From Candidatus Bipolaricaulota bacterium (GTDB lineage Bacteria; Bipolaricaulota; Bipolaricaulia; Bipolaricaulales; Bipolaricaulaceae), in NCBI GenBank assembly GCA_014361015.1, contig JACIWJ010000001.1, positions 7,765 through 71,764 of the forward strand: DNA of 64,000 nucleotides, given 5' to 3'. A program made the translations under genes and the position numbers. Below, piece by piece: positions 13,049 through 40,681 of the stretch. How positions within the stretch are numbered: position 1 is the first letter of the stretch; each line of letters starts with the position of its first letter. The notes beneath the pieces are model-generated. The model was not told the DNA's origin, did no database searches, and worked only from the letters and a program-made list of their open reading frames with translations.

Positions 13049-13094
13049 GCTATAACACTAGCCAACGAGGCCGACCACGGCAAAGGAGTGATGG

Positions 13095-14711: not shown

Positions 14712-15379
14712 TGCGAACGTTGGCGCTGGGGATAGCGATCGGCCTCGGCGTGTGGGCAGGGTTCCTCGACGTGACCGGGACGAAGGACCGCCTCGTGGAG
14801 GTGGCGACGGACCTCGGCGCGCCCCCGGCGGCCCTGGCCGAGCTCGAAGCGGCGTTGGCGAACGTCCCGGACGCGGTCCCGTTCCCCCTCCTGGGAGGAC
14901 TGGTTGCCCTTCCCCTCCCGATCGGGACGCTCGCGGTCGAGGGGGCGCTCCTCACCGACGGCGCCCTCGTGGCGATGGGGTTGTGGCCAAGCGGGGGGGT
15001 CGACCTCGTCGATCCCCCGCTGGCAGTGGACCTCGCCCTGACGGCGTACCGCGTCGGCCTGTCGTGGAAGGTCGGGTTGGACCTCGGGTTCGTCGCCGCG
15101 GGGGTAGGGGTTGGGGGCGCCGTGTTCGGAGGCAGCATTCTCCCAGCGGTGACGACCACCCATCCCGACCTCGGTCCGATCCTCGCCGCGATCCCGTGGG
15201 ATGGGATCACCTGGTCCGCCGGCGGAGCGTCGCTCACCGCGACGGTGGAGCTCGGGCTTCCCTTCCTGCGCCTGTTCGTGCAGGGAGGGGTGTTCCTTCC
15301 GGTGGCCCAGGCACCGGGGGGATGGGCGATCCGCGTGGGCGGCTATTCCGCGGCCGCCGGGGTGGTAATCCGGTTCTGA
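14711..15379 (+). CDS. hypothetical Gly/Ala/Val-rich exported protein, OMP-like C-terminus
   Basis: ATG shares one base with the upstream TGA (TGATG). N-terminal hydrophobic segment MRTLALGIAIGLGVWAG. Ends in ...AAGVVIRF, a beta-signal-like terminal Phe. Confidence 0.5.
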   Translation: MRTLALGIAIGLGVWAGFLDVTGTKDRLVEVATDLGAPPAALAELEAALANVPDAVPFPLLGGLVALPLPIGTLAVEGALLTDGALVAMGLWPSGGVDLVDPPLAVDLALTAYRVGLSWKVGLDLGFVAAGVGVGGAVFGGSILPAVTTTHPDLGPILAAIPWDGITWSAGGASLTATVELGLPFLRLFVQGGVFLPVAQAPGGWAIRVGGYSAAAGVVIRF

Positions 15380-25576: not shown

Positions 25577-27325
25577 CTACTTCGCGAGCTGTTCGAACCG
25601 CGCCACCCGCTCCCCGAGCACGGCCAGCCCCCCCTCCCAGAACGACCGCGATTCGAGGTCGAACCCGAACCGCCCCGCGAGCTCCTGGGCCGGGTAGATC
25701 CCCACCGACGCCAGGAGGTCGTCGTAGCGGGCCACGAACGCCTCTCCTTCCTGGACGTACTTCTGGTAGAGGGCGAGCCCGAACAGGAGCCCGAACGTGT
25801 ACGGGAAGTTGTAGAAGTCGGTCCCGTAGTAGTGGGGCTTCACCGCCCACATGTAGGGGTGGTAGGTGGCCAGCGCGTCGCCGTAGGTTGCCCTCTGGGC
25901 GTCGAGCATGAGCCCGCAGAACTCGTCGGCCGACAGCTCCCGCCCGGGCCGCTTCTCGAACACCGCCTTCTCGAACAGGAACCGGGAGTGGATGTCGACC
26001 ACCACCTGCGCCGCCCCCTGGAGGTCGGCCTCGAGGACCGGAAGCTGTTCCTTCGCCGGGAGCGTCTTGAGCGCGGCCTGGACGACGATCGTCTCGTTCA
26101 TGATGCTCGCCGTCTCGGCGAGCGTCATCGGGTACATGCGGAGCAACGGCGGCCTCTCCCGCAGGCAGTGGTTGTGGTAGGCGTGGCCGAGCTCGTGGGC
26201 GATCGTGGAGACCGAGTCGAAGCTCTCCTCGAAGTTGGCGAGGATCCGGCTCTTCCCCCCGCCGATCGGCATGCAGTACGCCCCGCCGCGCTTGCCCTTC
26301 CTCGGCTCGGCGTCGATCCACCGGTCGCGGAACGCGGTCTCCGCCACCGCCGCGTCCGAGGGGGAGAACGTGTGGAGCTGCTCCACGATGAACGCCGCCC
26401 CCTCGTCCCACGTCCACGTCTTCTCGCTTGTGCCCACCGGCGCGGCGAGGTCCCACCAGTCGAGCTTGGGCTTCCCCAGGAGCCGCGCCTTGGCCCGGAA
26501 GTAGCGGTGCCACACCGGGAAGCTCGCCACGACCGCCTCCTGCATCGCCGCGAGCACCTGGGGGGAGATCCGGTTCCGGACGAGGACGGGCTCGAGGTCG
26601 TCCCGCCACTTCCGCTTGCGGTTGAGGGTCGACGCCTCGCCCTTGACCCCGTTCAGGGCGGCGGCGAGCGGCACCTCGTGCGCCTTCCACGCCGCGAGTT
26701 CCGCGTCGTAGGCCTCTTTGCGGACCTTGGGGTCCGGGCTGTGGGCGAGGTTGCGGACCGCGGTGATCGGGAGCTCTTTGCCGCCCACGGTGGCCGTGAT
26801 GAGGCTCGACACGTTGCCATGGAGCTTCGTCCACGCGCTCCCGCCCGAGAGGCGGAGCTCAGCGGCGAGGATCTCCTCCGGCTCGCTCATCATGTGCTCG
26901 GCCTGGACGCGGGCCTCGTCGAGCATCAGCTTGTACGGGCCGGCGCTGATCCTCTCCGGGTCGAGCCGTGCCAGCCACGCCGTGAGCCGCGGCCGGAGCC
27001 GCTCGTAGAGGAGGAACATCCGCTGGAGTTCGGATAGCCTGGCCTGGGCGGCCTGGTTCGTGCTGTCCGTGTCCACCTGACCCGACACGAACGCGCGCAC
27101 GGGGAGGAACGCCTCGAGAAGGCCGTTGATCGCGGTCGTGATCTCCTCGAACGCGGCACGGTCCGAGTCCCGCATCGGCCGTGGGCCGACCTCGTGCTCG
27201 TTGAAGAGCGGTTCTAGAGCCTGGAGGCGTGCCTGGAGGTCCGTCCACGCGGCCGTGAACGCGGGGTCGTCGAGGCTCGCGAACAGGGGCGACAGATCCC
27301 AATGGGGCAGCTTCTTCTCGGTCAT
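25577..27325 (-). CDS. pepF: oligoendopeptidase F-like M3B metallopeptidase
   Basis: HELGHAYH zinc motif, 582 aa from MTEKKLPHWDL. The ORF-track 763-aa version is an upstream extension. Confidence 0.9.
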   Translation of the reverse strand: MTEKKLPHWDLSPLFASLDDPAFTAAWTDLQARLQALEPLFNEHEVGPRPMRDSDRAAFEEITTAINGLLEAFLPVRAFVSGQVDTDSTNQAAQARLSELQRMFLLYERLRPRLTAWLARLDPERISAGPYKLMLDEARVQAEHMMSEPEEILAAELRLSGGSAWTKLHGNVSSLITATVGGKELPITAVRNLAHSPDPKVRKEAYDAELAAWKAHEVPLAAALNGVKGEASTLNRKRKWRDDLEPVLVRNRISPQVLAAMQEAVVASFPVWHRYFRAKARLLGKPKLDWWDLAAPVGTSEKTWTWDEGAAFIVEQLHTFSPSDAAVAETAFRDRWIDAEPRKGKRGGAYCMPIGGGKSRILANFEESFDSVSTIAHELGHAYHNHCLRERPPLLRMYPMTLAETASIMNETIVVQAALKTLPAKEQLPVLEADLQGAAQVVVDIHSRFLFEKAVFEKRPGRELSADEFCGLMLDAQRATYGDALATYHPYMWAVKPHYYGTDFYNFPYTFGLLFGLALYQKYVQEGEAFVARYDDLLASVGIYPAQELAGRFGFDLESRSFWEGGLAVLGERVARFEQLAK

Positions 27326-27424
27326 GGGGTGGAGTATACCCCTCGCGGCGGGATCCGGTCTGGGATGAGGTGACCCGTCCCGGGGGCGCTGAGCTGAGAA
27401 GAGAGGCGGTACACTGGCTGGGCG

Positions 27425-27988
27425 ATGACAATCGTTGATCTGCGCGGTGGCGACGAGCGGGTGATCCACCAGGCAGCGGAGCTGCTCGTGCGCTGCTTTG
27501 CCCACATCCCGAGCGGGTGGCACACGCTGGAGGAGGGGCTCGCGGAGGTGCGGGAGTCGCTGGCGCCGGGCCGGGTGAGCCGCGTCGCCCTGGACGAGAA
27601 CGGGGACGTGCTCGGCTGGATCGGGGCGATTCCGATGTACCAAGGCCACGTGTGGGAGCTTCATCCGCTCGTCGTCCGACCCGACCGGCAGCGGCAGGGG
27701 ATCGGCCGGGCTCTCGTTGCGGACCTGGAGCGTCTCGCCCGCGAGCGGGGCGTGGACACGATCTTCATCGGCACGGACGACGAGGACGGGCGGACGAACC
27801 TCTCCGGCGTGGACCTCTACCCCGACGTCCTCTCGTGGGCGGCGCGGATCGAGCACGTGGGCGGGCACCCGTTCGCGTTCTACCGGAAGTGCGGGTTCGT
27901 GGTGGTCGGCCTGATCCCGGACGCGAACGGGTTCGGCAAGCCCGACATCCTGATGGCGAAGCGGATCACGGCTCCGAGGCCGGGGTAG
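27425..27988 (+). CDS. GNAT family N-acetyltransferase
   Basis: Acetyl-CoA motif A RQRQGIGRALVADLERLARERG, 187 aa. Confidence 0.8.
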   Translation: MTIVDLRGGDERVIHQAAELLVRCFAHIPSGWHTLEEGLAEVRESLAPGRVSRVALDENGDVLGWIGAIPMYQGHVWELHPLVVRPDRQRQGIGRALVADLERLARERGVDTIFIGTDDEDGRTNLSGVDLYPDVLSWAARIEHVGGHPFAFYRKCGFVVVGLIPDANGFGKPDILMAKRITAPRPG

Positions 27989-28163
27989 CTCCTACGAAAG
28001 TCTTGCCTCTCCTGCGAGAGAGGGCACGGGCAGATTCCCCCTGGGGTCCAATTCTGCCGTGGGGGGAGAGGGTCGCGGTGTGGAGGCAACCCGGCGTGGA
28101 GGTCGCCTGTTCATGTGCGATGAATTTGAGATGCGTGTCACAACGGAGGACGGCGTGCTTGGC

Positions 28164-29501
28164 CTACCGGTGGGATCTGGCTCCTACTGCGACCACGCAC
28201 AGATCAGCGACATTGGTCCCTGTCGGCCCTGTCACCACGAGGTCTCGGGACGCCCTGAGTGCGGTGTAGGCATCGTTGTTGAGCAGTGCCGCCCTGGGAT
28301 CTATCCCTGCCGCGATCATCCGTCCCACAGACCCCCCGTCCACCATCCCCCCCGCCGCGTCGGTGGGGCCGTCCCGTCCGTCGGTTCCCACGAAGCACAG
28401 GACCACACCGTCGAGTTCAGCGATTCCCAGTGCAGCGGCCAGAGCGGCCTCCTGGTTCCTCCCCCCTTTGCCGCTCCCTCGCACGGTCACCGTGGTCTCC
28501 CCAGCAAGGACGAGGAGTCCGGGGCGGGGGACAGGGCGCCCGCAGCGCACCACTTCCCGCGCTAGAGAGGCGATGACCTGCCCCACCTCCCGGGCCTCGC
28601 CGCACAACTCGGTGGTGAGGATCGCCCCCTTGAACCCCAACCGCTCTCCCGCTTCGAGGGCGGCCTCAGCTGCAGTGGCTCCGCTTCCCACGGTCATGTT
28701 GTGCACCGTCCGAAACACGGGATCGCCCGGCTTCGGCGTCTCGGGGATCTCTCCCTCCACTCCGCGGGTGATGTGGCTGCGAACTGCCTCCGGGACCTTC
28801 TCCCACAGCCGATGGTCCTGAAGAACGCGGTGCGCATCGAGGAACGTGGTTGGATCTGGAACCGTGGGGCCGGAGGCAATGACGTGGAGGGGGTCCCCAG
28901 GGACATCGGACAGGATGAGGGATACCACCTGGGCTGGGGCAGCGCGGCGCGCGAGCTGCCCCCCCTTCAGCTGGTCGAGGTGCTTCCGGACGGAGTTCAC
29001 CGCCTGGATCGGGGCCCCGGAGCGCAACAGGAGTTCGTGGGTCTCCTGAAGATGTTCCAGGGTGAGCCCGGTGGCGGGGAGGGTGAGAAGGGCGGATCCC
29101 CCACCTGAGATGACGACCAGAACAAGATCATCTTGCGCGGCCCCATCGACGAGCCCCGCGATGCGGCGAGCTGCCTCTACTCCACGGCTGTCCGGCACCG
29201 GGTGGGACGCCTCCACCACCTCGATCCGCTCGCACTACACCCTGTACCCGTCTGCCGTCACCACGAGCCCGGCCTTCACCCTCTCCCCCAGGATGGCCTC
29301 GACCGCCCGGGCCATCGTCCCTGACGCCTTCCCGAAACCGACCACGATCACTCCCCGCGCGGGGAATCGCTGGTCCCCAACCTGCACCTGATCCCCTGCC
29401 CTGGCGAGGACGCGCTTCACGCACTCGCCGGGGTTCACGGAAGCGATGGCTGCCTGCACGATCTCGGTCACGGCTCGCCGCAATCCCTGGGTGTTCATCA
29501 T
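28164..29501 (-). pseudogene. MOFRL-family glycerate kinase interrupted by a single in-frame TAG (29235-29237)
   Basis: ORFs 29235..29753 and 28164..29219 are in the same frame. The reading ...VVTADGYRV-TAG-CERIEVVEASHPVPD... is continuous with the conserved HPxPD region, followed by ISGGGSALL and the C-terminal MOFRL domain. Total 446 codons. Confidence 0.85.
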
Positions 29502-29653
29502 GCGATGATCCACCCTGCGGCCCGGCTGCGCGAGGGGCGCCGGGCGCCCGGCCACCGCCCAATCTGGGGCACTCCTTCTCCCCGGATTCCGGGGATGGCG
29601 TGCGGTGGGCAGGCGGTATACTCCCGTATGGGAGGAGGAGGGCAGCGGGGGAC

Positions 29654-30958
29654 ATGGCACGCGCGGGTCCGGTGACGGTGGCTCTCGTGGGCGCGGGGCA
29701 AAGGGGAGGTGACGTCTACGGGCGCTACATCCTCGACCACCCCCGTTCGGCAAGGGTTGTGGCCGTGGCGGAGCCGGACGCCACGCGCCGCGCTGCCATC
29801 GGCCGCGCTCACGGAGTGCCCTCCGCCAGGCTGTTTTCCTCCTGGGACGACCTCCTGTCCTGCGGCAGGCTGGCGGAAGCGCTCATTGTGGCCACACCGG
29901 ACAACCTCCACGCGGAACCCGCCCTGGCCGCACTGGAGCGCGGCTACCACGTTCTCCTCGAGAAGCCCATCGCCACGTCCAGGGAGGACCTCCTTCGCCT
30001 CTGGGAAGCCGCCTACCGCTCCCCCGGATCGGTGACGGTGGCCCACGTGCTCCGGTACACGCCGTTCTTCCGCACGGTCAAGGATCTGCTGGATCGGGGG
30101 GCGGTTGGGCAGCTCGTGTCCGTGATTCAGGTTGAGAACATCGGGTACTGGCACTTCGCCCATTCCTACGTCCGTGGGAACTGGCGACGGGCAGACCGCG
30201 CCTGCCCGCTGGTCCTGGCCAAGGCCTGTCACGATTTGGACCTCCTCGGTTGGTTCATCGGGGGGAACTGCCGGTTCGTGCGGTCAGTGGGAAGCCTGAC
30301 CTTCTTCCGACCGGAGAACGCCCCCCCCGGAGCCACGGAACGGTGCACCGACCCCTGCCCGCACGAGCCCGTGTGCCCCTACTCCGCGGTGGAGATCTAC
30401 CTGCGCCGGTTTGGCAAGGATAGGGGATGGCCTGGATCGGTGATCTCCCCCGATCCGGCCGCGCGGGCAGCGGCGCTGGCCCAGAGTCCCTACAGCCGCT
30501 GTGTCTTCCGGTGTGACAACGATGTCCCCGACCAGCAGGTCGTGGTGATGGAGTTCGAAAGAGGCGTGGTGGCTACGCTGGTCGTCTCCGCCTTTACCGC
30601 CGAGAACACCCGCACCGTCAAGCTGATGGGCACCCACGGGGAGATCCGGGGGCACCTCGGCCGGGGGGAGGTCTCCGTCCTCCCCTTCTCCCGCCTTCCC
30701 CCACGGCGATTCCGTACCCTAGCGTGTGGTGGGCACGCGGGGGGCGATGATGGACTGATGGAGGCCTTCTTGAAGAGGGTTCATGAGGCACGAGTCGGAC
30801 CTGTTCCGTCCCCCCTCACCTCCCTGGACGCGTCCTTGGTCAGTCACCTCTGGGCCCTCGCGGCCGAGGAGGCTCGGATCAGCGGGAAGATGGTGGACTT
30901 GGAGGACTGGATGGCTCTCATCCCACGTCAGGGCTCCCCCGCCGCGCGCCGGCAGTAG
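29654..30958 (+). CDS. Gfo/Idh/MocA family oxidoreductase
   Basis: N-terminal Rossmann fold VALVGAGQRGGDVYGRY and the EKP motif (LLEKPIATS). Confidence 0.85.
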   Translation: MARAGPVTVALVGAGQRGGDVYGRYILDHPRSARVVAVAEPDATRRAAIGRAHGVPSARLFSSWDDLLSCGRLAEALIVATPDNLHAEPALAALERGYHVLLEKPIATSREDLLRLWEAAYRSPGSVTVAHVLRYTPFFRTVKDLLDRGAVGQLVSVIQVENIGYWHFAHSYVRGNWRRADRACPLVLAKACHDLDLLGWFIGGNCRFVRSVGSLTFFRPENAPPGATERCTDPCPHEPVCPYSAVEIYLRRFGKDRGWPGSVISPDPAARAAALAQSPYSRCVFRCDNDVPDQQVVVMEFERGVVATLVVSAFTAENTRTVKLMGTHGEIRGHLGRGEVSVLPFSRLPPRRFRTLACGGHAGGDDGLMEAFLKRVHEARVGPVPSPLTSLDASLVSHLWALAAEEARISGKMVDLEDWMALIPRQGSPAARRQ

Positions 30959-32076
30959 TGCTCCACCATCTGGTGCAGGTGGTGCATCGCCAGGTCGTAG
31001 CCGCGGAGCGCTACCGAGAAGGTGTACGCCAGGACCCGGGCCGCCCAGAGTCGGAACAGGAGATCCTGCCAGTCGGGATCCTTGCTCTGGTATTCCCGAA
31101 GGAGAACGCGGTACGTGTCGTACCAGGCCGCGTCGTCCACGCACCCCACCCGGGGGATCCGCCGGGATGGGTTCAGCCCATCCCGGACCGCAGGCGGGAA
31201 GTGGTCGAGGAGCTCCGCCTGACGCTCCGTCCAACCCTCGACGAGCAGGGCCAGCGTCGCGTCAACGTCGTAGCCAATCTTGGCCTTGATGGCCTCCGAC
31301 ACCGGGCCCTGGTACTCCACGTGGTGCAGTGTGGTTCCGGCGACCGATGCCCCGGCCAGCGACGAGAGGGCCTCGAAGCACTCGATCAGCATCGTGCGTA
31401 GGTCGGCCAGGGACCCGTAGAGCTTGTGGACCTTCCCCACGCCCATGTACGTCTCGTAGAGGCTGAAGCCCTGAGCGACTGTGGCGAACGTGTACAGCGT
31501 GTCGATTCCCCAGTCGCTCTGGGCCTGGACCTGCGGATCCGCGAGAAGCGCTTCCGCCACCTGTCTCGTCATCAGCAGCTCACCCCCCAGCGGCTGCTCG
31601 ATCCGCGGGAGTTCGGACCGTGGAAACAGGAGGGCGAACCCTGTTCGGGTGATGAACCAGGTGATCATCGCGTCCGTACTCGCCCGCGGGAAGTAGTGGC
31701 GTACAACCTGGTATCCCTGGTCCGCGGCCTTCTCCGCCTTCTCGATCCACTCCTCGGAGAAGGAGAGGATGTCGGCGTCGTAGAAGTGGATACGGTCGTG
31801 CTCTGTATGGGTCAAGAGGTACCGCAGGGCGCTGTTCATCCCGTCTCCCTTTCCGGGCCTCTTGGTGCCGATCCTCTCTTGAACGATGACTTCCACTTCC
31901 TTGCCGCTCGAACGGGCAAGGGTGGGGGCAGCGCGGGCCACGGCCGCGAAACACTCGTCCTCCTCTGCCCCTATGCACACGACCCGCCGCACTCGCGGGT
32001 GGGCCAGAGCTGTGGAAACGTTCTTCAGCAGGACGTCGGGATCCTCGCGCTTGAACGGGAATACGACAACGCTCAT
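30928..32076 (-). CDS. mgs: mannosylglycerate synthase (GT78, single-step GDP-mannose:D-glycerate mannosyltransferase)
   Basis: Colinear over the full length with my memory of Rhodothermus marinus MGS: MSxVVFPFK, RPGKGDGMN(S/T)ALRY, IHFYDADI (DxD), RHYFPRASTDAMITW, EQPLGGELLM, SDWGIDTLYTF, GK(V/A)H(K/R)LYG, DLRTML(I/V)ECF, DPDW(Q/E)(D/E)LLF(R/K)LW. Confidence 0.85.
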   Translation of the reverse strand: MSVVVFPFKREDPDVLLKNVSTALAHPRVRRVVCIGAEEDECFAAVARAAPTLARSSGKEVEVIVQERIGTKRPGKGDGMNSALRYLLTHTEHDRIHFYDADILSFSEEWIEKAEKAADQGYQVVRHYFPRASTDAMITWFITRTGFALLFPRSELPRIEQPLGGELLMTRQVAEALLADPQVQAQSDWGIDTLYTFATVAQGFSLYETYMGVGKVHKLYGSLADLRTMLIECFEALSSLAGASVAGTTLHHVEYQGPVSEAIKAKIGYDVDATLALLVEGWTERQAELLDHFPPAVRDGLNPSRRIPRVGCVDDAAWYDTYRVLLREYQSKDPDWQDLLFRLWAARVLAYTFSVALRGYDLAMHHLHQMVEHYCRRAAGEP

Positions 32077-33197
32077 TGTGTCCCTCCCTCGGACGGCGGC
32101 GGAGCTGGCACAGGAAGCGCCTTCCCCGTCTCCTTGTCGAATAGGCGGAGCTTCTGCCCCACGAGGGTCAACCCCACCGTCTGCCCTGCTGCCAACAGCG
32201 GCTCGGGGGCGGTGGCGACCTTCAGGACGTCCTGGCCGACCTGGACCGTCAGCAGTTGCTGGGAACCCAAGGGCTCCGACACCAGCACCGTGGCGGCAAG
32301 AGACCCCGGCACCGGCCCGTGATGGACGGTGATGTTCTCAGCCCTGATGCCCACGATCACGGTCTGGCCTGTCCTCGCTTTCAGTTGATCCCTCCACAGC
32401 GCCGGCACGAGCAGGGTGAACTCTCCCACCACGAGCTCGACGCTCTCGTCGCGAGCAGCGACGGTGGCCTCGAGGAAGTTCATCGGCGGGGTGCCGATGA
32501 ACCCGGCGACAAACGTCGATGCCGGCCTGTCGTAGACCAGGCTGGGATGATCCAGTTGAACGATGGTCCCGTCCATCATCACCGCGATGCGGTCTCCCAG
32601 GGACAGGGCCTCCACCTGGTCGTGGGTTACGTACACGGTGGTCGTCCCGACTTCGCGATGCAGTCGTTTCAATTCGGCTCTCATCTGGAGCCGGAGAAGG
32701 GCATCGAGGTTGGAGAGCGGTTCATCCATGAGCAAGACCTGGGGTTTCATCACGATGGCGCGTGCCACGGCCACCCGTTGCCGCTGCCCACCGGAGAGCT
32801 GGGCAGGGTATCGCTGGAGAAGTTCGTCGATCCGAAGGAGCTCCGCTGCCTCCTCGACCTCTTTCTGGATCTGTCGTCTGGGGACGTGGCGCATGCGGAG
32901 CCCGAAGCCGATGTTCTGTGCCACGGTCATGTGTGGAAACACGGCATAGCTCTGGAAGACCATGGCGATCCCCCGCCGAGCAGGAGGCAGTCCCGTCACG
33001 TCACGGCGGCCGATGAAGATCCGCCCCCTGTTGGCCCGCTCGAGGCCGGCGATGCACCGCAGTGTGGTCGTCTTCCCGCAGCCGGATGGTCCAAGGAGGA
33101 CGAGGAACTCCCCATCCTCGATCGTCAGATCGACATCGCGGACTGCCACTACCCGGCCAAACGTCTTCCGTACTTGTTCGAGCCTGATCTCGGCCAC
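32073..33197 (-). CDS. sugar ABC transporter ATP-binding protein (MalK/UgpC type)
   Basis: Walker A GPSGCGKTT, signature LSGGQRQRVA, Walker B LLMDEPLSNLD, C-terminal TOBE-like domain. Its stop overlaps the mgs start (ATGA). Confidence 0.95.
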   Translation of the reverse strand: MAEIRLEQVRKTFGRVVAVRDVDLTIEDGEFLVLLGPSGCGKTTTLRCIAGLERANRGRIFIGRRDVTGLPPARRGIAMVFQSYAVFPHMTVAQNIGFGLRMRHVPRRQIQKEVEEAAELLRIDELLQRYPAQLSGGQRQRVAVARAIVMKPQVLLMDEPLSNLDALLRLQMRAELKRLHREVGTTTVYVTHDQVEALSLGDRIAVMMDGTIVQLDHPSLVYDRPASTFVAGFIGTPPMNFLEATVAARDESVELVVGEFTLLVPALWRDQLKARTGQTVIVGIRAENITVHHGPVPGSLAATVLVSEPLGSQQLLTVQVGQDVLKVATAPEPLLAAGQTVGLTLVGQKLRLFDKETGKALPVPAPPPSEGGTQ

Positions 33198-33200
33198 CGC

Positions 33201-34022
33201 TCACCTCTCTGAGATCGCACCGCCCCACATTTGGAACAGATACCTCCGGGCCAGGGCCATGAAGATCAAGGCAGGGATGATCATGAAAAACCCCCCCGCG
33301 AACCGAAAGTCGAGGGGAGCAACCTCGAGCGATGTCAGCACCTGGGCAGGCAAGGTCCGATTCCGGACGGTGAGAATAGCGGAAGCGAACACCTCGTTCC
33401 AGGAGATCACGAAGGTGAACATGGCAGCTGCGGCCAGCCCCGGAAGGGCCAACGGGAGAGCCACCCTCACGAACGCCCCCAAGCGGCTGCACCCGAGGGT
33501 CATCGCTGCCTCTTCCAGTTCTTTGGGAACCCCCGAGAAGATGCCTGATGTAATGAGGACAGCAAATGGGAGAGCCATGGCGGTGTGGATGAACGCCACA
33601 CCGATCAACGTATCGTAGAGCTGCCACCGGATGAACGTGACGATGAGGGGGATGGCCAGCAACGACGTGGGGAACATTCTGGTCATGAGGATGCCGATGC
33701 GGAACGCTTCCCGACCGCGGAAGACGTACCGCGCCACGGCGTATCCAGCAGGTGCACCGACGGCAAGGGTCATCCCCAAGGTCAGTAGCGCCACCAGCGC
33801 GCTGTTCCTCAACGAGGTGAGGGTGCCGTACGATCGGAGGAAAAACGACATCGTTGCCGTGGAAAAGCCGCTGGGAAGCACCGGCCGTGGCCATTGATAC
33901 AGCTCGAGACGGGGTGTGAACGCTGCGAGGGCGATGAGGGCCAGCGGAACGAGGACCCACAGTGCGATTACCACCACCACCATGTACAGGAGAAACCGGC
34001 GCTGGAGCTGACGGAACGTCAC
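33201..34022 (-). CDS. carbohydrate ABC transporter permease
   Basis: EAA loop ELEEAAMTLGCSRLGAFVRVALP and six TM-like segments. GTG start overlapping the upstream TGA (GTGA). Confidence 0.9.
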   Translation of the reverse strand: MTFRQLQRRFLLYMVVVVIALWVLVPLALIALAAFTPRLELYQWPRPVLPSGFSTATMSFFLRSYGTLTSLRNSALVALLTLGMTLAVGAPAGYAVARYVFRGREAFRIGILMTRMFPTSLLAIPLIVTFIRWQLYDTLIGVAFIHTAMALPFAVLITSGIFSGVPKELEEAAMTLGCSRLGAFVRVALPLALPGLAAAAMFTFVISWNEVFASAILTVRNRTLPAQVLTSLEVAPLDFRFAGGFFMIIPALIFMALARRYLFQMWGGAISER

Positions 34023-34894
34023 GGACGCACCTCCCGCGGGCGGAGGAACCGCAGGTATCCCCAGGCGAGCAGGGCCGAGATGACCATGAGGAGCAGGGCA
34101 TAAGCGGAAGCCACATTCGTATTGCGATAGAGGTAGTACCAGTAGTAGGCTTCGCCCGCCAATACAGGGACCATGCGCCCTCCCATTGCGACGACAACCG
34201 CGAACATCTGCAGGGCGAGGATCGTTCGGATGATGAGGGCCGACTGTAGCGACGGCTTGAGGAGAGGTAATGTGACATGCCACAACCTCTGCCAGGAACG
34301 AGCCCCGAATACCTCAGCAGCCTCGAGGTAATCGCGGGAGATCATCTGCAGGCCGGCAACGAGGATTACGAGCACGATCGCGGTGGCGCGCCAGTGCTCA
34401 GCGAGCACGATTGACCCTAAGACCCATCCCGTATTTTGTGCAGAAAGGAAGAAGATCGGCCTCTCGATGATCCCCAGACCGTACAAGAAGGAGTTGATGT
34501 ATCCATGCTGGGTGAAGAGGGAGAACCAGATCAGTCCAGCGGCGAGGTCTGAGATGCCGAGTGGGATGGCACAGATGTAGAGAAAAGTTCGCGATCCGCG
34601 AAACCTCGTATTGACGAGGAGGGCGATGAAGAGGGCTGTCACCAGCTGCAGGGGGACGATGATCGCTAGGAGGAGCAACGTGAAGCGGAGGGCGCTGACG
34701 AACTGAATGTCCTGGACCATGCGCACGAGGAAGCGCGTCGTCCACTGTCCATCCTGGGTGCGGAATGCCAAGAGAAGGGCTTGGACCACTGGGACCAGGA
34801 AGAACACGGCCACGTAGGCGATCGTGGGAAGGATCAACCAGTAGGGGAGGGCCTTCTCCGAGGCCAGCGACCGCAGGGCAGGGGTCCGGGGCAT
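34019..34894 (-). CDS. carbohydrate ABC transporter permease
   Basis: EAA loop YLEAAEVFGARSWQRLWHVTLP. Start at MPRTPALRS. Confidence 0.9.
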   Translation of the reverse strand: MPRTPALRSLASEKALPYWLILPTIAYVAVFFLVPVVQALLLAFRTQDGQWTTRFLVRMVQDIQFVSALRFTLLLLAIIVPLQLVTALFIALLVNTRFRGSRTFLYICAIPLGISDLAAGLIWFSLFTQHGYINSFLYGLGIIERPIFFLSAQNTGWVLGSIVLAEHWRATAIVLVILVAGLQMISRDYLEAAEVFGARSWQRLWHVTLPLLKPSLQSALIIRTILALQMFAVVVAMGGRMVPVLAGEAYYWYYLYRNTNVASAYALLLMVISALLAWGYLRFLRPREVRP

Positions 34895-34937
34895 GGATGA
34901 AGCCGGGCCGGGGGCATTCCCCCGGCCCGGCACTCCT

Positions 34938-36209
34938 CTATGGTAGGTACACGTCGGGCACGGGAGTTGGCGCACCCGTCTCCCGGAACAGCGCATCCAA
35001 GAGCGCCCCTTGCTGGGCAAGGACCTCCTTGATGGGCCTGCCGCGGATCACGATCTCGGTGAACGAGTCCAGATAGACCTTGTTGAACTCCCCGCCTCGG
35101 GCACCGAGCCCGCCAGGGATGATGGAGACGAGGAGATCTGGCGAAGCTGACTGGACCGCGACGCCATCAGCAAGGACCTTCAGCCCTCCTGTGGGGACTG
35201 CACCGGCGGCTTCGGTGACCACCGGGAAGAACCCTACGCCCTCCAGGATCGCTACCTGGCTGGACGGGCGCGTGAGGTACTCGATCAGCTGGTAAGCGCT
35301 CGCTGGATCGGGCGCAGTCTGGGGGATGGCGAGACCCGCGAGGACCGTGATCACGCCGCGGCCCTTGGGCCCGGCGGGGGCCGGCAGCACGACGAAGTCG
35401 TCGGGGCGCTCCATCACCGCTGTCTTCACCCGCGCCGTGTGATCCCACGCGATCCACACCTCTTCGGACAGGAGCGCGGTGTCCATCGAGTCAAGAAGAG
35501 GGGCCGACGGCGTCACGTACTGCCAGAGGTCCTTCAGGTACTCCCACATCAAGACCGCCGCCGGCGAGTCGAACTTCTTGACCTGGGCCCCAGTAAACGA
35601 GGGGTAGAGGTAGCCATGGAGAAAACGGTGGAGCAAGGCGCGAGGCCCAGCCGGGATTCCGAGCTTCTGCTCCCCGGTCGCCTCGTAGATCTTCTTGGCC
35701 CAAAGGTAGAGCTGGTCATAGGTCAGGGTCGTGGGGTCGGCCCACGAAGGAAGGTACTGGAGGGCCTTCTTGTTGGCCACGAGGACGTAGGTGGCCTGCA
35801 TCCACGGGATGTAAACTTGAGCATCGCCGATCCGTCCCAACTCCACGAACGACTGCGCTAGGGTTCGGTCGCCCAGGGCTTCGAGCTGGGCCAGCTCGGC
35901 CCCTAGATCCTTCAGGGCGCCGTAGTAGACGAGGAAGTTGCCGTGGAGATCGCCCACGAGATCGAGTGACCCGCGGCCAGCTTCGAACTCAGCGAGGATC
36001 CGGTTCGTCAGTTCCGGCTCCTCTGCCCCGAGGAAGACAACGGGCACACCGGTTTCCGTCGTGAACGGGGGGAGAAGCACTGTGCGGACCCATTCGGCCT
36101 CGGTTATGGGCCGCATCTGCGTCGACATGAACGTCAGATCTGGCGCGGCAGCCACCGTCGCCGCGCTTGCCACCAACCCTGCGAGAAGAAGAACACTTAG
36201 GTATCTCAT
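34938..36209 (-). CDS. ABC transporter extracellular solute-binding protein (family 1)
   Basis: Sec-type signal MRYLSVLLLAGLVASAATVAAA. GGAGGG lies 8 nt upstream of the ATG at 36209. Confidence 0.9.
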   Translation of the reverse strand: MRYLSVLLLAGLVASAATVAAAPDLTFMSTQMRPITEAEWVRTVLLPPFTTETGVPVVFLGAEEPELTNRILAEFEAGRGSLDLVGDLHGNFLVYYGALKDLGAELAQLEALGDRTLAQSFVELGRIGDAQVYIPWMQATYVLVANKKALQYLPSWADPTTLTYDQLYLWAKKIYEATGEQKLGIPAGPRALLHRFLHGYLYPSFTGAQVKKFDSPAAVLMWEYLKDLWQYVTPSAPLLDSMDTALLSEEVWIAWDHTARVKTAVMERPDDFVVLPAPAGPKGRGVITVLAGLAIPQTAPDPASAYQLIEYLTRPSSQVAILEGVGFFPVVTEAAGAVPTGGLKVLADGVAVQSASPDLLVSIIPGGLGARGGEFNKVYLDSFTEIVIRGRPIKEVLAQQGALLDALFRETGAPTPVPDVYLP

Positions 36210-36508
36210 TTCCACTTCCCTCCTTCTTCAACTGCTGGTGGTGATCCCGAGCTTCTCTCTCGGAAGAATCCCCTCCTGTTCCTCACCTCCTTCCCCTCCC
36301 CCACTCTCAGCACGTCCTGGTTCCCGATCCTTGTGCCCACCGGGCTCGCATGCTCCACAGCTGCCACCAATTGTCTGAGACGTGGATAGGGTGTGTGTTT
36401 GGACTACGGACACCAGGGGAGAGGTCGCTCATGTTCTGACAGGTCTCCATGTGCGCATCGGCGCCTCCCTGGCAAGACCGCGCTCTCCACCTCCTCGCAA
36501 CTTCACCG

Positions 36509-36528
36509 AGAGTTGTTATAACAACTCT
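36509..36528. promoter_or_regulatory. perfect 20-bp palindrome AGAGTTGTTATAACAACTCT, candidate GntR-type operator
   Basis: Exact inverted repeat verified base by base. It contains a GT-N-AC type core (GTTATAAC) and overlaps the -10 of the candidate minus-strand promoter of the ABC/mgs operon. Confidence 0.5.
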
Positions 36529-36553
36529 AGCATGGCACGGAGCGCTTTGTCAA
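36524..36553 (-). promoter_or_regulatory. candidate sigma70-type promoter of the SBP-permease-ATPase-mgs operon
   Basis: Minus strand reads TTGACA (36553-36548), an 18-nt spacer, then TAGAGT (36529-24). It lies about 300 nt upstream of the SBP start. Confidence 0.4.
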
Positions 36554-36583
36554 GTTCTTCGTGGCGCAAGTGAGTCTGGGATG

Positions 36584-38038
36584 CTACGCCAGGTAATCGA
36601 TGATCGCCTGGGCTTGCGCGATGGCTTCGGCGGGTGACTTTCTCTTCTCCAGTGTCTGGGCGAGCATATCCTGTAGCTGAGCCGATACCTGAGCATAGCG
36701 AGGTACGATAGGCCGCACATGAGCGATCTCCAGCAACCTACTGGTCTCATAGATGAACCAGTCTCGTTCCTGATCAAGGGAGCGCACCACCGAAACTCTG
36801 GTCGGCTTGCGCCCTATCAGACGGCACATCTCCATCATCAGCGAGGGACTGGCAAGGATCTTTAGGACTTCCAGAGCCGCCTCTGGGTGGCGCGACTGCC
36901 GGAAGACAACGTACACCATCCCCCCCACTGTTGCCGCAGGCCTCCCGCCCGGCCCAGCGGGAATGGGGACGAACCCCACCCTCTCTCGGAATGCCTTGTC
37001 ATCCCACCCTGCGACCTGCTGGATGAGCGCCTTCTCGTAGCTCCCCCCGAACGCCAACGCCAGTGCCCCACGGGCGAACAGGAGCGGAACTTCGTTGAAC
37101 TCGTAGCGGGAGGCAGCGGGCGATGCCAGCCGGTACGTGTGGACCAGATCATAGAGAAACCTCAGGGCCTGCCGGGCCCCCTCGCCGAGAACGATCCTGC
37201 CTTCAGTGCAGATCCCGTCTCCTGCTGACCAGATGAGAGAGCTCAGAATGTAGGTGGTTGTCTCACCTGCGTTCGGGCCTCCAGGGAACGCGAGCGGGAA
37301 CGGACCCAATCCGTACCGCTGCCGGACAGGTGCACTCCCGAAGTGCTGGGCCACTGTCACGAGCTCGTCCCACGTCTGGGGAGGGGGGAGTCCCTCGACC
37401 TCAAACCAGTCCCTGCGATACCAAACGAGCGAGACATTGGCCTCGGGCTGCATCCCGTAGAGGTGGCCCCGGTAGCAGTTGTTTTCCACAAACAGTGGAA
37501 ACAGGTCAGCCTTGAACGCCGCCGCCCACTCCTTGTCGATCTCGTCCAGGGGTGCGAGGTAGTCAAGATCGGCGAACTCGGTGAGCCATACCCAGTCGAT
37601 GAGAGCTAGATCAGGGGCGACGCCTCGACCCACCGCAGAGACGATCTTAGCGTGGAGCTCGGGGCGTCCCAGGACTTTGATCTGGGGCTGGAGCGCCCCG
37701 CCCAGTCCCTGCCGTCTGTGCACCTGGAACGCCTTCCTAAGTGACGGAACCCAATGTTCTTCAGGGAGCACGGCCCGCAGGGGGACCGTTTTCGCGGGAA
37801 GACGGTGGTTGACGAACGTTCCACTCCCCTGGTGGCGAAGAACGAGTCCCTCGTTGGCCAGTGCGCCGAGGGCTTGGCGCACCGTGACCCGGCTCACGCC
37901 GAACTGCCGGCAAAGCGCCTCTTCAGTGGGAATGCGTTCTCCCGGACGGTAGGCTCCGCGCTCGATCTCCTCCTCCAGGATTTGCTTCAGCTGCCGGTAG
38001 AGCGGGACCGCAATCTTCTTATCTAGGTTCCTTCTCAC
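36584..38038 (-). CDS. GntR-family wHTH regulator fused to a periplasmic-type (family 1) solute-binding domain
   Basis: N-terminus PLYRQLKQILEEEIERGAYRPGERIPTEEALCRQFGVSRVTVRQALGALANEGL is a GntR HTH. The remaining roughly 400 aa look like SBP_bac_1 (APDLALIDWVWLTEFADLDYLAPLDE...). There is no signal peptide. GTG start. Confidence 0.85.
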   Translation of the reverse strand: MRRNLDKKIAVPLYRQLKQILEEEIERGAYRPGERIPTEEALCRQFGVSRVTVRQALGALANEGLVLRHQGSGTFVNHRLPAKTVPLRAVLPEEHWVPSLRKAFQVHRRQGLGGALQPQIKVLGRPELHAKIVSAVGRGVAPDLALIDWVWLTEFADLDYLAPLDEIDKEWAAAFKADLFPLFVENNCYRGHLYGMQPEANVSLVWYRRDWFEVEGLPPPQTWDELVTVAQHFGSAPVRQRYGLGPFPLAFPGGPNAGETTTYILSSLIWSAGDGICTEGRIVLGEGARQALRFLYDLVHTYRLASPAASRYEFNEVPLLFARGALALAFGGSYEKALIQQVAGWDDKAFRERVGFVPIPAGPGGRPAATVGGMVYVVFRQSRHPEAALEVLKILASPSLMMEMCRLIGRKPTRVSVVRSLDQERDWFIYETSRLLEIAHVRPIVPRYAQVSAQLQDMLAQTLEKRKSPAEAIAQAQAIIDYLA

Positions 38039-38179
38039 TTTTTTGATTATAGACCCACTGCCAAAGGATGCTCAACCGAGCGCTTTCCCGGCAAGGTGAG
38101 CAGTCTGCGAGCGGGCACGGCCCCGCATTCGCCAGGGAGATACCTCCACCCTGGTGGGTCCCGTATAATGCTTGGTCAG

Positions 38180-39553
38180 ATGGGGCGCATTGGGATCTGC
38201 CATTTCCGCACCGGGGACATCGATGGGGTCTCGCTCGAGATCGATAAGAGCCGGCAGGTGTTGCACCAGTTGGGGCATCAGACGTTTCTGTGCACGGGGC
38301 GCTGCGGGATGGGGGAAGAGGCCTTCGTCATCCCCGAGATGTCCCTAGATCATCCGGAAGTCCTGCAGATCCGTCGGAACGCGTTTGAGCGCCTGGCGGA
38401 CTACCGCAGCGAACGCGATCTCCACGATCACATCGAGGGCGTGGCGGCGAGAATCGAGGCGAGGGTGGCGGAGTTCTTGACCGGACTAGGCATCGACCTC
38501 CTCGTGGTCCATAACCTATGGGGACTACCGCTCAACCTGCCTGCCACGGTGGGTGTGTGGCGGGCGGTCGAAGTCCACCAGCTGCCCGTGCTGGCCCACC
38601 ACCATGATTTCCACTGGGAGCGAGAGGAGTACCGAAGTCCCACTGCTGCGGGGGTACGGGACCTGGTGGACAAGTGCTTCCCTCCCCGTAGTCCCCGCGT
38701 GACGCACATCGTGATCAATCGCATCGCGCACGAGGAGTTGCGCCGACGGGGCATTCCGTCGACCGTGGTTCCCAATGTGTTCGATTTCCATTCGTCGCCG
38801 ACCCCAAGGGAGTCCCGCTGGGCTTTGCTTGAGCACCTGGGTCTTTCCTTGGCTGACGTGGTATTCCTTCAGGCGACCCGGATCGTCCGTCGCAAGGGCA
38901 TTGAGATCGCGCTCGAGCTCGTGGCGCGGCTTGGGTCGCCCGAACACAGAGGCGCCCTCCATCGCCGCGTCCGTGAGCGGGGTGGCGGCTTCTCCGGGCG
39001 GCCGGTGGTCCTCCTTCCCAACCTCGTTGAGGACCGAGGGTACTGCGAGGCGCTCCGGGAGCGTGCCGCCCGTCTGGGCGTCGACGCCCGGTTCGTGTCG
39101 GACCGGGTGGCCTCCACGCGCCGCCCAGGGTGTCTCTCGCTTTGGGATACGTACCTGTGCGCGGACTTCGTCACTTACCCGTCGCTCCAGGAAGGCTGGG
39201 GCAACCAGTTCCTGGAAGCGGTATGGGCGAGATTGCCGATGGCGGTCTATGAGTACCCCGTGTTCCGGTCCGATATCGCTCCAGCAGGATTCCAGTACGT
39301 ATCGCTCGGGCACAGTTACGAGCGAGATGAGGATGGTCTTGCTCGGGTGCCGGAGCCCACCCTTCGCCGTGCGGCGCAGGAGGTGGCCGATCTCCTCTCC
39401 AGGCCGGATCGGTACCGCCAGCTCGTTGAGCACAATTATGCCCTTGGCAAAGCGCGCTTCTCCCTCCAGATCCTCATGGAGGAACTGAACCGGCTGGTGA
39501 GCGTAGCCCTCCAAGACCGGCCAGGGACAGGGCGTGAACCGTGCGGACGGTGA
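38180..39553 (+). CDS. GT4-family (GT-B, retaining) glycosyltransferase
   Basis: C-terminal E-X7-E motif (QEGWGNQFLEA) and two Rossmann-like halves. Start chosen at MGRIGICHF. An alternative ATG is at 38168 and the ORF track starts at 38096. Confidence 0.8.
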   Translation: MGRIGICHFRTGDIDGVSLEIDKSRQVLHQLGHQTFLCTGRCGMGEEAFVIPEMSLDHPEVLQIRRNAFERLADYRSERDLHDHIEGVAARIEARVAEFLTGLGIDLLVVHNLWGLPLNLPATVGVWRAVEVHQLPVLAHHHDFHWEREEYRSPTAAGVRDLVDKCFPPRSPRVTHIVINRIAHEELRRRGIPSTVVPNVFDFHSSPTPRESRWALLEHLGLSLADVVFLQATRIVRRKGIEIALELVARLGSPEHRGALHRRVRERGGGFSGRPVVLLPNLVEDRGYCEALRERAARLGVDARFVSDRVASTRRPGCLSLWDTYLCADFVTYPSLQEGWGNQFLEAVWARLPMAVYEYPVFRSDIAPAGFQYVSLGHSYERDEDGLARVPEPTLRRAAQEVADLLSRPDRYRQLVEHNYALGKARFSLQILMEELNRLVSVALQDRPGTGREPCGR

Positions 39554-40458
39554 TCCTCGCCGGGGGGTATGGAAAGCGCCTCTGGCCGATCACCCACGAT
39601 CGTCCCAAGCCACTCCTTCCTGTGGCTGGGAGGCCGATCCTGGACTACATCATGGACCAGCTACCAGGACCAGAGCGGCCGATCCTCGCCGTAAACCGGC
39701 GGTTTGAGACCCAGTTCGCGGCGTGGGCCAAGGGGCGGGCGGTGGACGTGGTCGTGGAGCCATCGACCTCCGAGGAGGAAAAGCTGGGATCGGTGGGGGC
39801 CCTTGCCTATCTGGTGGAGAGGCTGCATCTCGATGATGACCTATTGGTGATTGGCGGGGACAACCTACTGGGCCTGAGCCTGGCCGACTTCCGGCGCGCG
39901 TTCCGGGGACAGACCCTCGTTGCCCTCTACGATCTGAAGCGCCCCGACCTCGCTCGCCGGCGCTATGGGGTGGCCGTGGTCGAGGGGAATCGGGTGGTCT
40001 CCTTCCAGGAAAAGCCTGACCGTCCTTGCTCGACCCTGGTGAGCGCAGCCTGTTTCCTGTTCCCGCGGTCCATTCTTCCCCTATTCGGGGCGTTCGTGGA
40101 CCAGGCCGTTGGCCATCAAGACAGCCCGGGGTACTTCCTGGAGTGGCTCCTGCTACGGCATCCCGTCGAGGCGTTCCCATTTGAGGGGGAGTGGTTTGAC
40201 ATCGGGAGCCGTGAGAGCTATATCGAGGCCAACCTGCGATGCACGGGCGGCGAAAGCTGGGTCCATCCCGGGGCACAGGTGGTGGGGTCCACCATTACGC
40301 GGTCTGTGATCGTGGGGCCATGTCGCATCGAGGGAGCGGTGCTGGATGGAGTTGTGGTGGACGAGGGAGCCACGGTGCGGGATGTTCGTTTGAAGGACGT
40401 CCTCGTTGGAAGGGGAGCTTCGCTCCGCGGCGAGGGGAGAGACTCGGGAACGGGTTGA
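39541..40458 (+). CDS. sugar-1-phosphate nucleotidyltransferase (NDP-sugar pyrophosphorylase) with C-terminal left-handed beta-helix
   Basis: LAGGYGKRLWPITHDRPKPLLPVAGRPILDY signature. GTG start overlapping the GT4 gene end. Confidence 0.85.
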   Translation: MRTVILAGGYGKRLWPITHDRPKPLLPVAGRPILDYIMDQLPGPERPILAVNRRFETQFAAWAKGRAVDVVVEPSTSEEEKLGSVGALAYLVERLHLDDDLLVIGGDNLLGLSLADFRRAFRGQTLVALYDLKRPDLARRRYGVAVVEGNRVVSFQEKPDRPCSTLVSAACFLFPRSILPLFGAFVDQAVGHQDSPGYFLEWLLLRHPVEAFPFEGEWFDIGSRESYIEANLRCTGGESWVHPGAQVVGSTITRSVIVGPCRIEGAVLDGVVVDEGATVRDVRLKDVLVGRGASLRGEGRDSGTG

Positions 40459-40681
40459 CGATTCGTCGCTGGATGAGGGGCGAACAGGATGTGTGGGGAT
40501 GGCCCGCGGGACGGTCGACCGTGGGGAGAAAGGTCTGCACCGCCGAACGTGCCGCGATCGGAGGGGGGACCTGGGAAGCTCTGGGTTTGGGGTCAACCCA
40601 AACTTGAACCGGCCGTTCTCGGCATCTTCCGCATGCTCGGCGGTGCGGCCTCGATCTCGTAGGCTGGGATGATCCAGTTGA

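Follow-up and report, generated by a model that had tools for sequence, protein, structure and literature searches.

The DNA analysed here is a 64-kb stretch (64,000 nucleotides (nt), the window) of contig JACIWJ010000001.1 from a bacterium of the heat-loving, uncultured Candidatus Bipolaricaulota, and the element in question is mgs, the gene of a mannosylglycerate synthase (MGS) of glycosyltransferase (GT) family GT78, which forms the end of an operon for an ATP-binding cassette (ABC) sugar importer. In this importer family the place is otherwise held by glycoside hydrolases (GHs) that degrade mannosylglycerate (MG), and MGS appears to occupy the genomic, transcriptional and regulatory position of an MG-cleaving enzyme, i.e. 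to be a non-orthologous replacement of a GH63 hydrolase. With moderate confidence we favour the reading that the locus is a substrate-inducible system for the uptake and utilisation of MG in which MGS acts in reverse, in a GDP-dependent manner; closely related glucosylglycerate (GG) is probably handled as well. We infer the in vivo direction of MGS, the ligands of the binding protein and of the regulator, and the co-transcription of the genes from sequence comparison and gene context.

The synthase gene and its operon

Judged by its profile and structure-database matches, the 382-residue product of mgs (30928..32076, minus strand) is a bona fide GT78 MGS in which the two-domain architecture, a GT-A catalytic domain followed by a helical C-terminal one, and the catalytic residues are intact. 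It matches the Pfam family MGS_GT over the entire profile (1.2e-108; residues 2-239, profile positions 1-239 of 239) and MGS_C with residues 263-371 (1.3e-33), and it aligns with MGS from Rhodothermus marinus (PDB 2bo4/2y4j; E ~2e-146) from 1-379 to 1-379, with 59.1% identity over 379 residues. An earlier note on this DNA, made from the letters alone, had described the open reading frame (ORF) as colinear with the R. marinus enzyme, including a DAD metal site and the histidine of a GK.H.LYG motif. Both motifs are found, as D100-A-D102 and G214-K-V-H217-K-L-Y220-G (GKVHKLYG, 214-221), and the assignment to GT78 is upheld by the profile and PDB matches.

The window enzyme keeps E11, Q66, K76, D100, D102, R131 (a glycerate contact), I138/T139, L163, W189, D192, H217 and Y220. 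Among these, E11 has been linked to the ribose and Q66 to the reading of the guanine, D100, K76 and D192 form a network, D102 and H217 are metal ligands, L163 contributes its carbonyl, and I138/T139 bind the carboxylate of glycerate (PMC2581804). D100, K76, D192, H217, T139 and Q66 are invariant in 81/81 aligned family members, D102 is kept in 80/81, and non-invariant functional residues show conservative changes, in at most 6/81 members. The Pfam domain pair, the metal ligands, the D100-K76-D192 network, Q66, I138/T139 and R131 are common to the window and the R. marinus enzyme; where the latter has R218, the window MGS has a Lys, as do roughly half of the compared members of the family.

As GC3-based calling was ambiguous in places, gene boundaries follow homology and the calls made for the sister contig L083, which is 99.2% identical to the window. 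The four genes upstream of mgs, all on the minus strand, encode an extracellular solute-binding protein (SBP; 34938..36209; 423 amino acids (aa), with signal peptide, SBP_bac_1 and SBP_bac_8), the ABC permeases 1 (34019..34894; 291 aa, ATG start, length equal to the L083 call) and 2 (33201..34022; 273 aa, GTG start within GTGA, L083 call identical), both with BPD_transp_1, and a MalK/UgpC-type ABC ATPase (32073..33197; 374 aa) with ABC_tran, OB_MalK and TOBE_2 domains, whose NCBIfam scores (UgpC 423 bits, MalK 354 bits) each stay under the respective cut-off. Together they supply every part of a CUT1-type carbohydrate ABC importer: the binding protein, the permease pair and an ATPase of MalK type that has the OB/TOBE regulatory domain. 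The SBP is a probable MG/GG-binding protein, as the relationships of the importer suggest (see below); a PDB sequence search with it returned no match.

The genes are tightly joined. The permease genes are connected by GTGA (34019-34022), 3 nt separate the stop of permease 2 from the GTG of the ATPase gene, and the end of the latter (...ACA CAA TGA) overlaps the ATG of mgs as ATGA (32073-32076), with GAGGGAGGGA as ribosome-binding site just 5' of the ATG; both overlaps were read directly, as the earlier note had given them. Between the SBP gene and permease 1 lies a 13-bp G+C stem-loop (34902..34931, minus strand; fold -38.9 kcal/mol, z = -4.06). As no T-run follows downstream, it is probably an mRNA-stabilising or attenuating element rather than a full terminator. 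Very stable hairpins in this place are often seen in ABC operons in which the binding protein is made in excess.

The SBP gene is preceded by a sigma-70-type promoter (TTGACA-18 nt-TAGAGT; 36524..36553, minus strand; TTGACA 36553-36548, TAGAGT 36529-36524), the -10 of which is covered by a 20-bp perfect palindrome, AGAGTTGTTATAACAACTCT (36509..36528), the putative operator of the repressor described below. Its core occurs once in the window, as compared to 0.15 copies expected by chance. A consensus scan of the minus strand from 27500 to 41000 found two promoters only, those of the operon and of the regulator gene, and none between the ATPase gene and mgs. The 315-nt leader of the SBP gene folds no better than shuffles (z = +0.35), and an Rfam scan of 27000-41000 at E <= 1 gave no match, i.e. 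no riboswitch in this leader. In relatives, too, the SBP gene is preceded by a -35/-10 promoter whose -10 coincides with a palindrome or lies right before one: the window shares the position of the operator core TGTTATAACA, or of a one-base variant, with L001, L023, L028, L126, L127 and L140 (L numbers denote loci), and another subclade of relatives has a palindrome of the type AATGG-N6-CCATT at the promoter. Gene spacing and conservation thus support one minus-strand operon of SBP, two permeases, ATPase and mgs behind a repressible promoter. The earlier note had proposed this operon with the same promoter and a palindromic operator, and an internal promoter that might uncouple mgs from it did not turn up in the scan.

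The candidate repressor is a fusion of GntR and SBP domains (36584..38038, minus strand; 484 aa; GntR 6.5e-23, SBP_bac_1 9.4e-25) with its own promoter (38075-38046). Residues 13-76 form the GntR winged-helix domain (PF00392), with PDB matches to the helix-turn-helix domains of YvoA and AraR, and the C-terminal 350 residues are of the SBP_bac_1 family (type-II, CUT1-like), the best PDB match being 1eu8 (2.4e-28), the trehalose/maltose-binding protein of Thermococcus litoralis and the nearest structure to the sensor domain. None of the classical effector domains of GntR proteins (FadR, HutC/UTRA, MocR, YtrA, or AraR with its type-I periplasmic binding protein) is present. By its domain composition the regulator would resemble AraR-type fusions in its way of working, yet it is a distinct fusion and an unusual one-component regulator. 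Comparison of the sensor domain with the window SBP gave only a weak match of 57 residues, i.e. the two are not close paralogues.

Relatives of the importer and their partner enzymes

The window has a G+C content of ~68% and is most closely related to metagenome-assembled genomes of Candidatus Bipolaricaulota (Acetothermia). A scan of 185,579 species-representative genomes with an MGS alignment found MGS at ~220 loci in several phyla, and 80 loci were fetched and compared with the window proteins by tblastn. The enzyme is rare per genome, as the earlier note had said of bacteria, but it is not narrowly distributed. The order SBP-permease-permease-ATPase-MGS is present in all Bipolaricaulota-type loci that reach far enough; it was found in L001, L003-L013, L015-L018, L023, L028 and L039, and furthermore in the metagenomic loci L127-L129 and L135 and in the complete genome of Bipolaricaulota sp. 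J31 (L081). Altogether, it is kept in ~25 loci with 46-68% G+C and MGS identities down to 54%, and the gap between ATPase gene and mgs is short throughout. Most loci of sufficient extent also hold, along with the operon, genes for an MggS-like GT, a nucleotidyltransferase and the GntR-SBP regulator. As their positions and orientations are shuffled, it is the association that seems to be under selection rather than a synteny that is merely frozen. In neighbour-joining trees the transporter-linked MGS fall into one clade, as do their binding proteins. In L023 the regulator, SBP, two permeases, ATPase, MGS, a true ManC, an MggS-like GT, a Ggs-like GT and a glycerate kinase are all encoded on one strand, and this is the sole transporter module in which a true ManC follows MGS. 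No homologue of a hydrolase was found within +/-10 kb of any transporter-linked MGS, and tblastn detected none of GH63, GH38, GH125 and GH130 in the 64-kb window, in agreement with the earlier note, according to which no GH63 or GH38 MG hydrolase is present.

Homologues of the window SBP number in the thousands, and three of them with 50-52% identity on long contigs were inspected. In L084 and L085 (Armatimonadota-type) the genes for SBP, two permeases and MalK are followed, in the position of mgs, by that of a 425-residue MGH1-like GH63 hydrolase, and in the third locus this position is taken by a GH125 alpha-mannosidase. A metagenome scan with a binding-protein alignment yielded 80 more loci, which were classified by tblastn and Pfam. 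The gene directly after the ATPase gene encodes a GH63 hydrolase in 21 loci, MGS in 20, GH125 in 8 (L086, L095, L098, L101-L103, L117 and L143) and GH38 in 2 (L145 and L147), counts that include closely related contigs and are to be read qualitatively. GH63 is encoded elsewhere inside the cluster in 9 further loci (30 in total), e.g. in the interval between SBP and permease genes or divergently from the regulator gene. With the binding proteins from GH63-, GH125- and GH38-type loci the window SBP shares ~47-52% identity, and the binding-protein tree unites the members linked to MGS, MGH, GH125 and GH38.

The best solved relative of the L084 hydrolase is TTHA0978 from Thermus thermophilus HB8 (2z07/4wva-c; E 8.7e-83), and the motifs with MG/GG-binding and catalytic residues are conserved. 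TTHA0978 is the characterised mannosylglycerate hydrolase Tt8MGH (PMC7263609), and the Thermus MgH enzymes cleave MG and GG about equally (PMC6608630). In Thermus, the hydrolase gene is part of an operon SBP-MGH-permease-permease-ATPase, the products of which share 52-55% (SBP), 52-54% (permease 2) and 56.5% (ATPase) identity with those of the window. By sequence identity and operon architecture, the window transporter is thus an orthologue of the MG-hydrolase-linked Thermus transporter, and in both cases an MG-acting enzyme is encoded inside the importer operon. However, the Thermus enzyme is an inverting GH63 hydrolase that is encoded between the SBP and permease genes and releases free mannose, whereas the window has a retaining GT78 transferase, which is encoded at the end of the operon and which would give GDP-mannose in the proposed reverse transfer. 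As MG and GG are the sole substrates common to GH63 MGH and GT78 MGS, orthology and gene context together make the window transporter most likely an MG or MG/GG importer. No paper on the Thermus transporter was found, and it is not known to have been studied itself.

The regulator forms a second tie between the two kinds of loci. GntR-SBP homologues with 40-66% identity occur at MGS-type and MGH-type loci alike; in the hydrolase-type loci L158-L160 the regulator is 40-41% identical to that of the window, and the promoters of L158 and L159 carry TATATC-ATTATAACAAA and the variant ATTATAACAA, with TTATAACAA as part of the motif at the -10. A similar repressor/operator design thus appears to govern both loci that are unambiguously catabolic, i.e. 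importer plus hydrolase, and MGS-type loci. Repression of a promoter by a protein with a sugar-binding domain is typical of substrate induction. As it would be illogical for a synthase to be induced by its own product, the shared regulator and operator favour a catabolic role.

Some of the importer's relatives show further arrangements. In L153 the ATPase gene is followed by a tandem pair of paralogues that resemble GH63 MGH (12171-14733), and GH130 genes lie near the transporter cluster in L086, L013 and L152. The GH125 and GH38 alpha-mannosidases that hold the slot in some branches may act on MG or on other alpha-mannosides. The metagenomic protein P0312 (624 aa) joins OB_MalK and TOBE_2 to an MGH1-like hydrolase domain; whether a fusion or a merged gene call, it would again tie the hydrolase to the transporter ATPase.

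Direction of the synthase reaction

The earlier note had offered two readings, co-regulated salvage and synthesis of the solute or a GT that runs in reverse, and the comparative evidence, i.e. transporter orthology, slot filling and the shared regulator, favours the latter. We propose that in the absence of effector the GntR-SBP repressor would occupy the palindrome over the -10, and that in the presence of the sugar SBP, the two permeases, the MalK-type ATPase and MGS would be made from one transcript, with translation of mgs coupled to the ATPase gene via the ATGA overlap. The ABC system would concentrate MG in the cytoplasm, where MGS, a retaining Leloir GT, would act in lieu of GH63: MG + GDP -> GDP-mannose + D-glycerate. 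This step is thermodynamically uphill and would have to be driven by mass action. GDP-mannose might be drained by the nucleotidyltransferase, which would convert it with pyrophosphate (PPi) to mannose-1-phosphate and GTP, or be used directly by the MggS-like transferase, and glycerate would be phosphorylated by glycerate 2-kinase where its gene is intact. The reverse step could be pulled by withdrawing the two products and by accumulating MG at the expense of ATP. As compared to hydrolysis, the energy of the glycosidic bond would be kept, no ATP would be spent by hexokinase and a nucleoside triphosphate (NTP) would be regained, which would suit energy-limited anaerobes. Bipolaricaulota are generally credited with such a lifestyle. 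Among the enzymes involved, glycerate 2-kinase is the one with a clear catabolic direction; its gene is adjacent in several loci and co-directional with the module in L023.

Several points weigh against this proposal. The reverse reaction is unfavourable by ~10-15 kJ/mol and requires high MG and low product concentrations. The case for it is drawn from sequence and context, just as the specificities suggested for the SBP and the regulator are drawn from orthology and context. When clade-specific active-site substitutions of the transporter-linked MGS were sought in the 81-sequence alignment, T42C was the sole difference, and the sequence thus bears no mark of a reaction turned round. Across the window no further copies of the operator were found, including the region upstream of the MggS-like gene. 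The glycerate 2-kinase gene (28173..29501, minus strand; DUF4147 + MOFRL), an accessory member of the island, has an in-frame TAG (29235-29237) in the window that is GAG (Glu) in L083 and L001, the gene being intact in both, with a 445-aa product in L083; this is either a recent pseudogenisation in the strain or an assembly or sequencing error. In the complete J31 genome, the kinase is missing from the minimal module altogether. The partner genes, i.e. those of the nucleotidyltransferase and the MggS-like GT and, in some loci, of a Ggs-like GT-A enzyme, ManC and PGI/PMI, can equally be read as a set for the biosynthesis of MG or mannosylglucosylglycerate, and many bins come from hot or marine settings, where MG synthesis is useful. 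Finally, ManC-type GDP-mannose pyrophosphorylases are encoded ~1.2 kb downstream of MGS in Desulfohalobiaceae (L040, L047 and L048), a halophilic family, and in L059 (binned as Desulfobacterales), and the transporter-free MGS-ManC pairs of Desulfohalobiaceae look biosynthetic.

In an alternative reading MGS runs forward (GDP-mannose + D-glycerate -> MG), uptake and synthesis of the protectant being switched on together, while the ABC system recaptures leaked MG or scavenges it from outside, and the MggS-like GT and the nucleotidyltransferase supply GDP-mannose or extend MG/GG to a diglycoside. In its favour, MGS is biochemically unchanged, its partners look biosynthetic, with L005, L011 and L023 adding a Ggs-like GT-A enzyme, ManC and PGI/PMI, and relatives stem from hydrothermal, oil-reservoir and hot-spring bins. 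MggS homologues are moreover known as synthases of a compatible solute (PMC3736172), and Ggt, the glucosylglycerol ABC transporter of Synechocystis sp. PCC 6803, offers a precedent in that it imports a glycoside solute that the cell also makes and mainly prevents its loss (PMC4390839). Ggt is compared here by its function, which is to recapture leaked solute, and no description places the gene for the synthase within the operon of the transporter. We nevertheless consider a forward-running MGS rather unlikely. Elsewhere in the importer family, hydrolases that degrade MG are found in the very slot of mgs, which favours GDP-dependent reverse action over synthesis plus recapture, and the hydrolase-type loci share the homologous regulator and the TTATAACAA-type motif at the -10. 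With a sugar-binding repressor, product-induced synthesis would amount to a runaway loop, and the glycerate 2-kinase encoded in the same string (L023, L031, L127 and the sister strain) would destroy the acceptor.

Intermediate between the two directions is an MGS that works both ways, depending on the pools of MG, GDP and GDP-mannose, so that MG would be made under stress and internal or imported MG dismantled on relief; or, as a variant, reverse MGS and forward MggS-like GT might move the mannosyl group via catalytic GDP to an acceptor such as GG, giving the cell a solute of its own. In favour of this, both MGS and the MggS-like GT are conserved along with the transporter, stand-alone MGS with a downstream glycerate kinase fits turnover as well as synthesis, and reactions of Leloir GTs are reversible in principle, with TreT as a case in point. 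Yet the MggS-like protein scores far under the equivalog cut-off, and in the Acidimicrobiia a stand-alone MGS has a separate gene resembling GH63 MGH at a distance of 2-3 kb (L038, 3093-4358; L050, 6410-7681), a proximity that suggests a pair for synthesis and hydrolysis and that shows some lineages to retain a dedicated degrading enzyme; we therefore deem a bidirectional MGS doubtful, even more so than a purely forward one. That mgs simply landed behind an unrelated sugar importer, with no functional link, is very improbable. The island has a G+C content of 64.4% as compared to 68.0% in the remaining window, which is compatible with acquired DNA, but the linkage is kept in ~25 loci over a wide divergence in sequence and G+C content, its genes abutting closely or overlapping, the MGS and binding-protein trees agree in showing one linked clade each, and the Thermus operon ties the transporter family to MG independently.

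The reverse reaction favoured here has a precedent in TreT (trehalose glycosyltransferring synthase). This enzyme is a GT of family GT4 with GT-B fold, which uses ADP or UDP and trehalose, whereas MGS has the GT-A fold (GT78) and would use GDP and MG. TreT is a retaining nucleotide-sugar GT whose gene belongs to the ABC cluster for trehalose and maltose in T. litoralis (PMC4158304), a cluster also present in Pyrococcus furiosus, and in Thermotoga maritima, where it belongs to the TreR regulon, it is co-regulated with a trehalose importer, induced by trehalose and a putative utilisation enzyme (PMC3750489). Just like MGS in the window, TreT is thus associated with a CUT1-type importer for its own glycoside product and with a sugar-responsive regulator, and it is viewed as a utilisation enzyme working in reverse. 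The regulators differ, being TrmB or ROK proteins in the case of TreT and a GntR-SBP fusion in the window. As importer-linked retaining Leloir GTs, the two may be regarded as functional and architectural analogues, without homology.

The component families are all known and the logic has its precedent in TreT; what is new is the combination of MGS and importer. Searches of the literature turned up nothing on transporter operons that include MGS, on ABC importers for MG or on how Bipolaricaulota metabolise mannosylglycerate, and among the papers listed none dealt with the reversibility of MGS. In hot marine ecosystems MG ranks among the major thermo- and osmoprotectants, and its recycling after release is poorly known, the only routes described, to our knowledge, being GH63 hydrolases and the phosphotransferase system (PTS)/GH38 route of Escherichia coli. 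The findings provide a sequence handle on a widespread family of ABC importers for mannosylglycerate-type solutes, anchored to the Thermus hydrolase, and point to one uncultured phylum that exchanged hydrolase for synthase. If MGS indeed acts in reverse, it would be the second natural catabolic Leloir transferase after TreT and part of a new energy-saving route, Bipolaricaulota would be scavengers of the compatible solutes of other microbes, and a thermostable enzyme pair would be at hand for making GDP-mannose from a cheap glycoside. The findings also advise caution in annotating metagenomic MGS genes as evidence of mannosylglycerate synthesis by an organism. More tentatively, and with somewhat less than even confidence, we speculate that in the Bipolaricaulota clade Leloir GTs, i.e. 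GT78 MGS and possibly the MggS-like and Ggs-like enzymes, replaced hydrolases as catabolic enzymes for glycerate-based solutes. In such a "reverse Leloir pathway" imported MG, mannosylglucosylglycerate or GG would be converted to GDP-mannose or NDP-glucose and glycerate, and pyrophosphorylases would then give sugar-1-phosphates and NTP, so that energy-starved anaerobes would save the energy of the glycosidic bond.

Neighbouring genes and other settings of MGS

The operon (63.5% G+C) is part of an island (28164-40458) that is flanked by housekeeping genes, those of peptidase M3, GlmS and HypF on one side and of HisRS and riboflavin genes on the other, and its lower G+C content is compatible with horizontal acquisition some time ago. 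The module also occurs, by mis-binning or transfer, in bins assigned to Thermotogae, Caldisericota and Neomarinimicrobiota. The earlier note's inventory of the locus had overlooked two members of the conserved module, the GntR-SBP regulator and the MggS-like GT.

The MggS-like (GT4-type) GT is encoded divergently from the regulator gene (38096..39553, plus strand, longest ORF); homology starts at residue 31, and the call in the sister contig has 461 aa. The protein aligns over the whole profile of NCBIfam NF041101 (mannosylglucosylglycerate synthase), with 344 bits as compared to an equivalog cut-off of 640, so it is best described as a homologue of the MggS family, to which MggS of Petrotoga mobilis and T. 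maritima belongs, and not as a confirmed equivalog; its J31 orthologue has a Glyco_transf_4 domain, and a PDB sequence search with the window protein gave no match. Ggs, like MggS, is among the mannosylglucosylglycerate pathway enzymes known from P. mobilis and T. maritima, and the loci of relatives hold Ggs-like GT-A enzymes. The MggS homologue of Rhodopirellula baltica was inactive in published assays (PMC3736172). An operator shared with the MggS-like operon was considered but not borne out, the window having a single operator site.

The end of the MggS-like gene overlaps by 13 nt with the gene of the sugar-1-phosphate nucleotidyltransferase (39541..40458, plus strand; 305 aa; NTP_transferase 3.9e-35). 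Its NCBIfam scores are weak and nearly equal for GlmU-type, mannose-1-phosphate guanylyltransferase and RmlA-type families, and its PDB matches are mixed. A definite assignment as GDP-mannose pyrophosphorylase was rejected on account of these equally weak scores to several sugar-1-phosphate families. The glycerate kinase and NDP-sugar pyrophosphorylase that the earlier note had placed next to mgs as enzymes processing the products are thus both present, but the kinase gene carries the in-frame TAG and the nucleotidyltransferase is not assignable to GDP-mannose. Genes for glycerate 2-kinase lie beside MGS or in one operon with it in L001, L021, L023, L031, L127 and L135.

MGS gene contexts vary by phylum. 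The MGS of Rhodothermus, Acidimicrobiia, Gemmatimonadota and Desulfohalobiaceae occur without a transporter of this kind. The R. marinus enzyme is documented as a synthase, the direction opposite to the one for which the window context argues, and the Rhodothermus loci L029 and L033 are without transporter, regulator and MggS-like genes within the fetched flanks. Stand-alone MGS genes in other phyla often have a glycerate kinase gene directly downstream (L026, L030, L034, L035 and L042). A second GT-A glycosyltransferase of ~390 aa, ~25% identical to MGS and with weak matches to GpgS and MGS_GT, is encoded beside the transporter genes in L142, L148, L150, L163 and L165 as well as in L005 (3149-4309), L011 (3130-4287) and L023 (9222-10400), i.e. 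both in a sister clade of the binding proteins (in L142 together with a glycerate kinase) and within some MGS-type modules; judging from these matches, the enzyme might make glucosylglycerate.

A gene for a GFO/IDH/MocA oxidoreductase (29600..30958, plus strand) runs towards mgs, with which it shares 31 nt; it is kept only in the closest relatives. Genes of this family recur by the transporter family in L085 (7983-8894), L142 (9700-10683) and L152 (5647-7224), and in L132, L134 and L136 the ATPase gene is followed by genes for a xylose-isomerase-like TIM barrel protein, a Zn-dependent alcohol dehydrogenase (Zn-ADH) and GH13. Both observations may reflect an oxidative route of glycoside cleavage.

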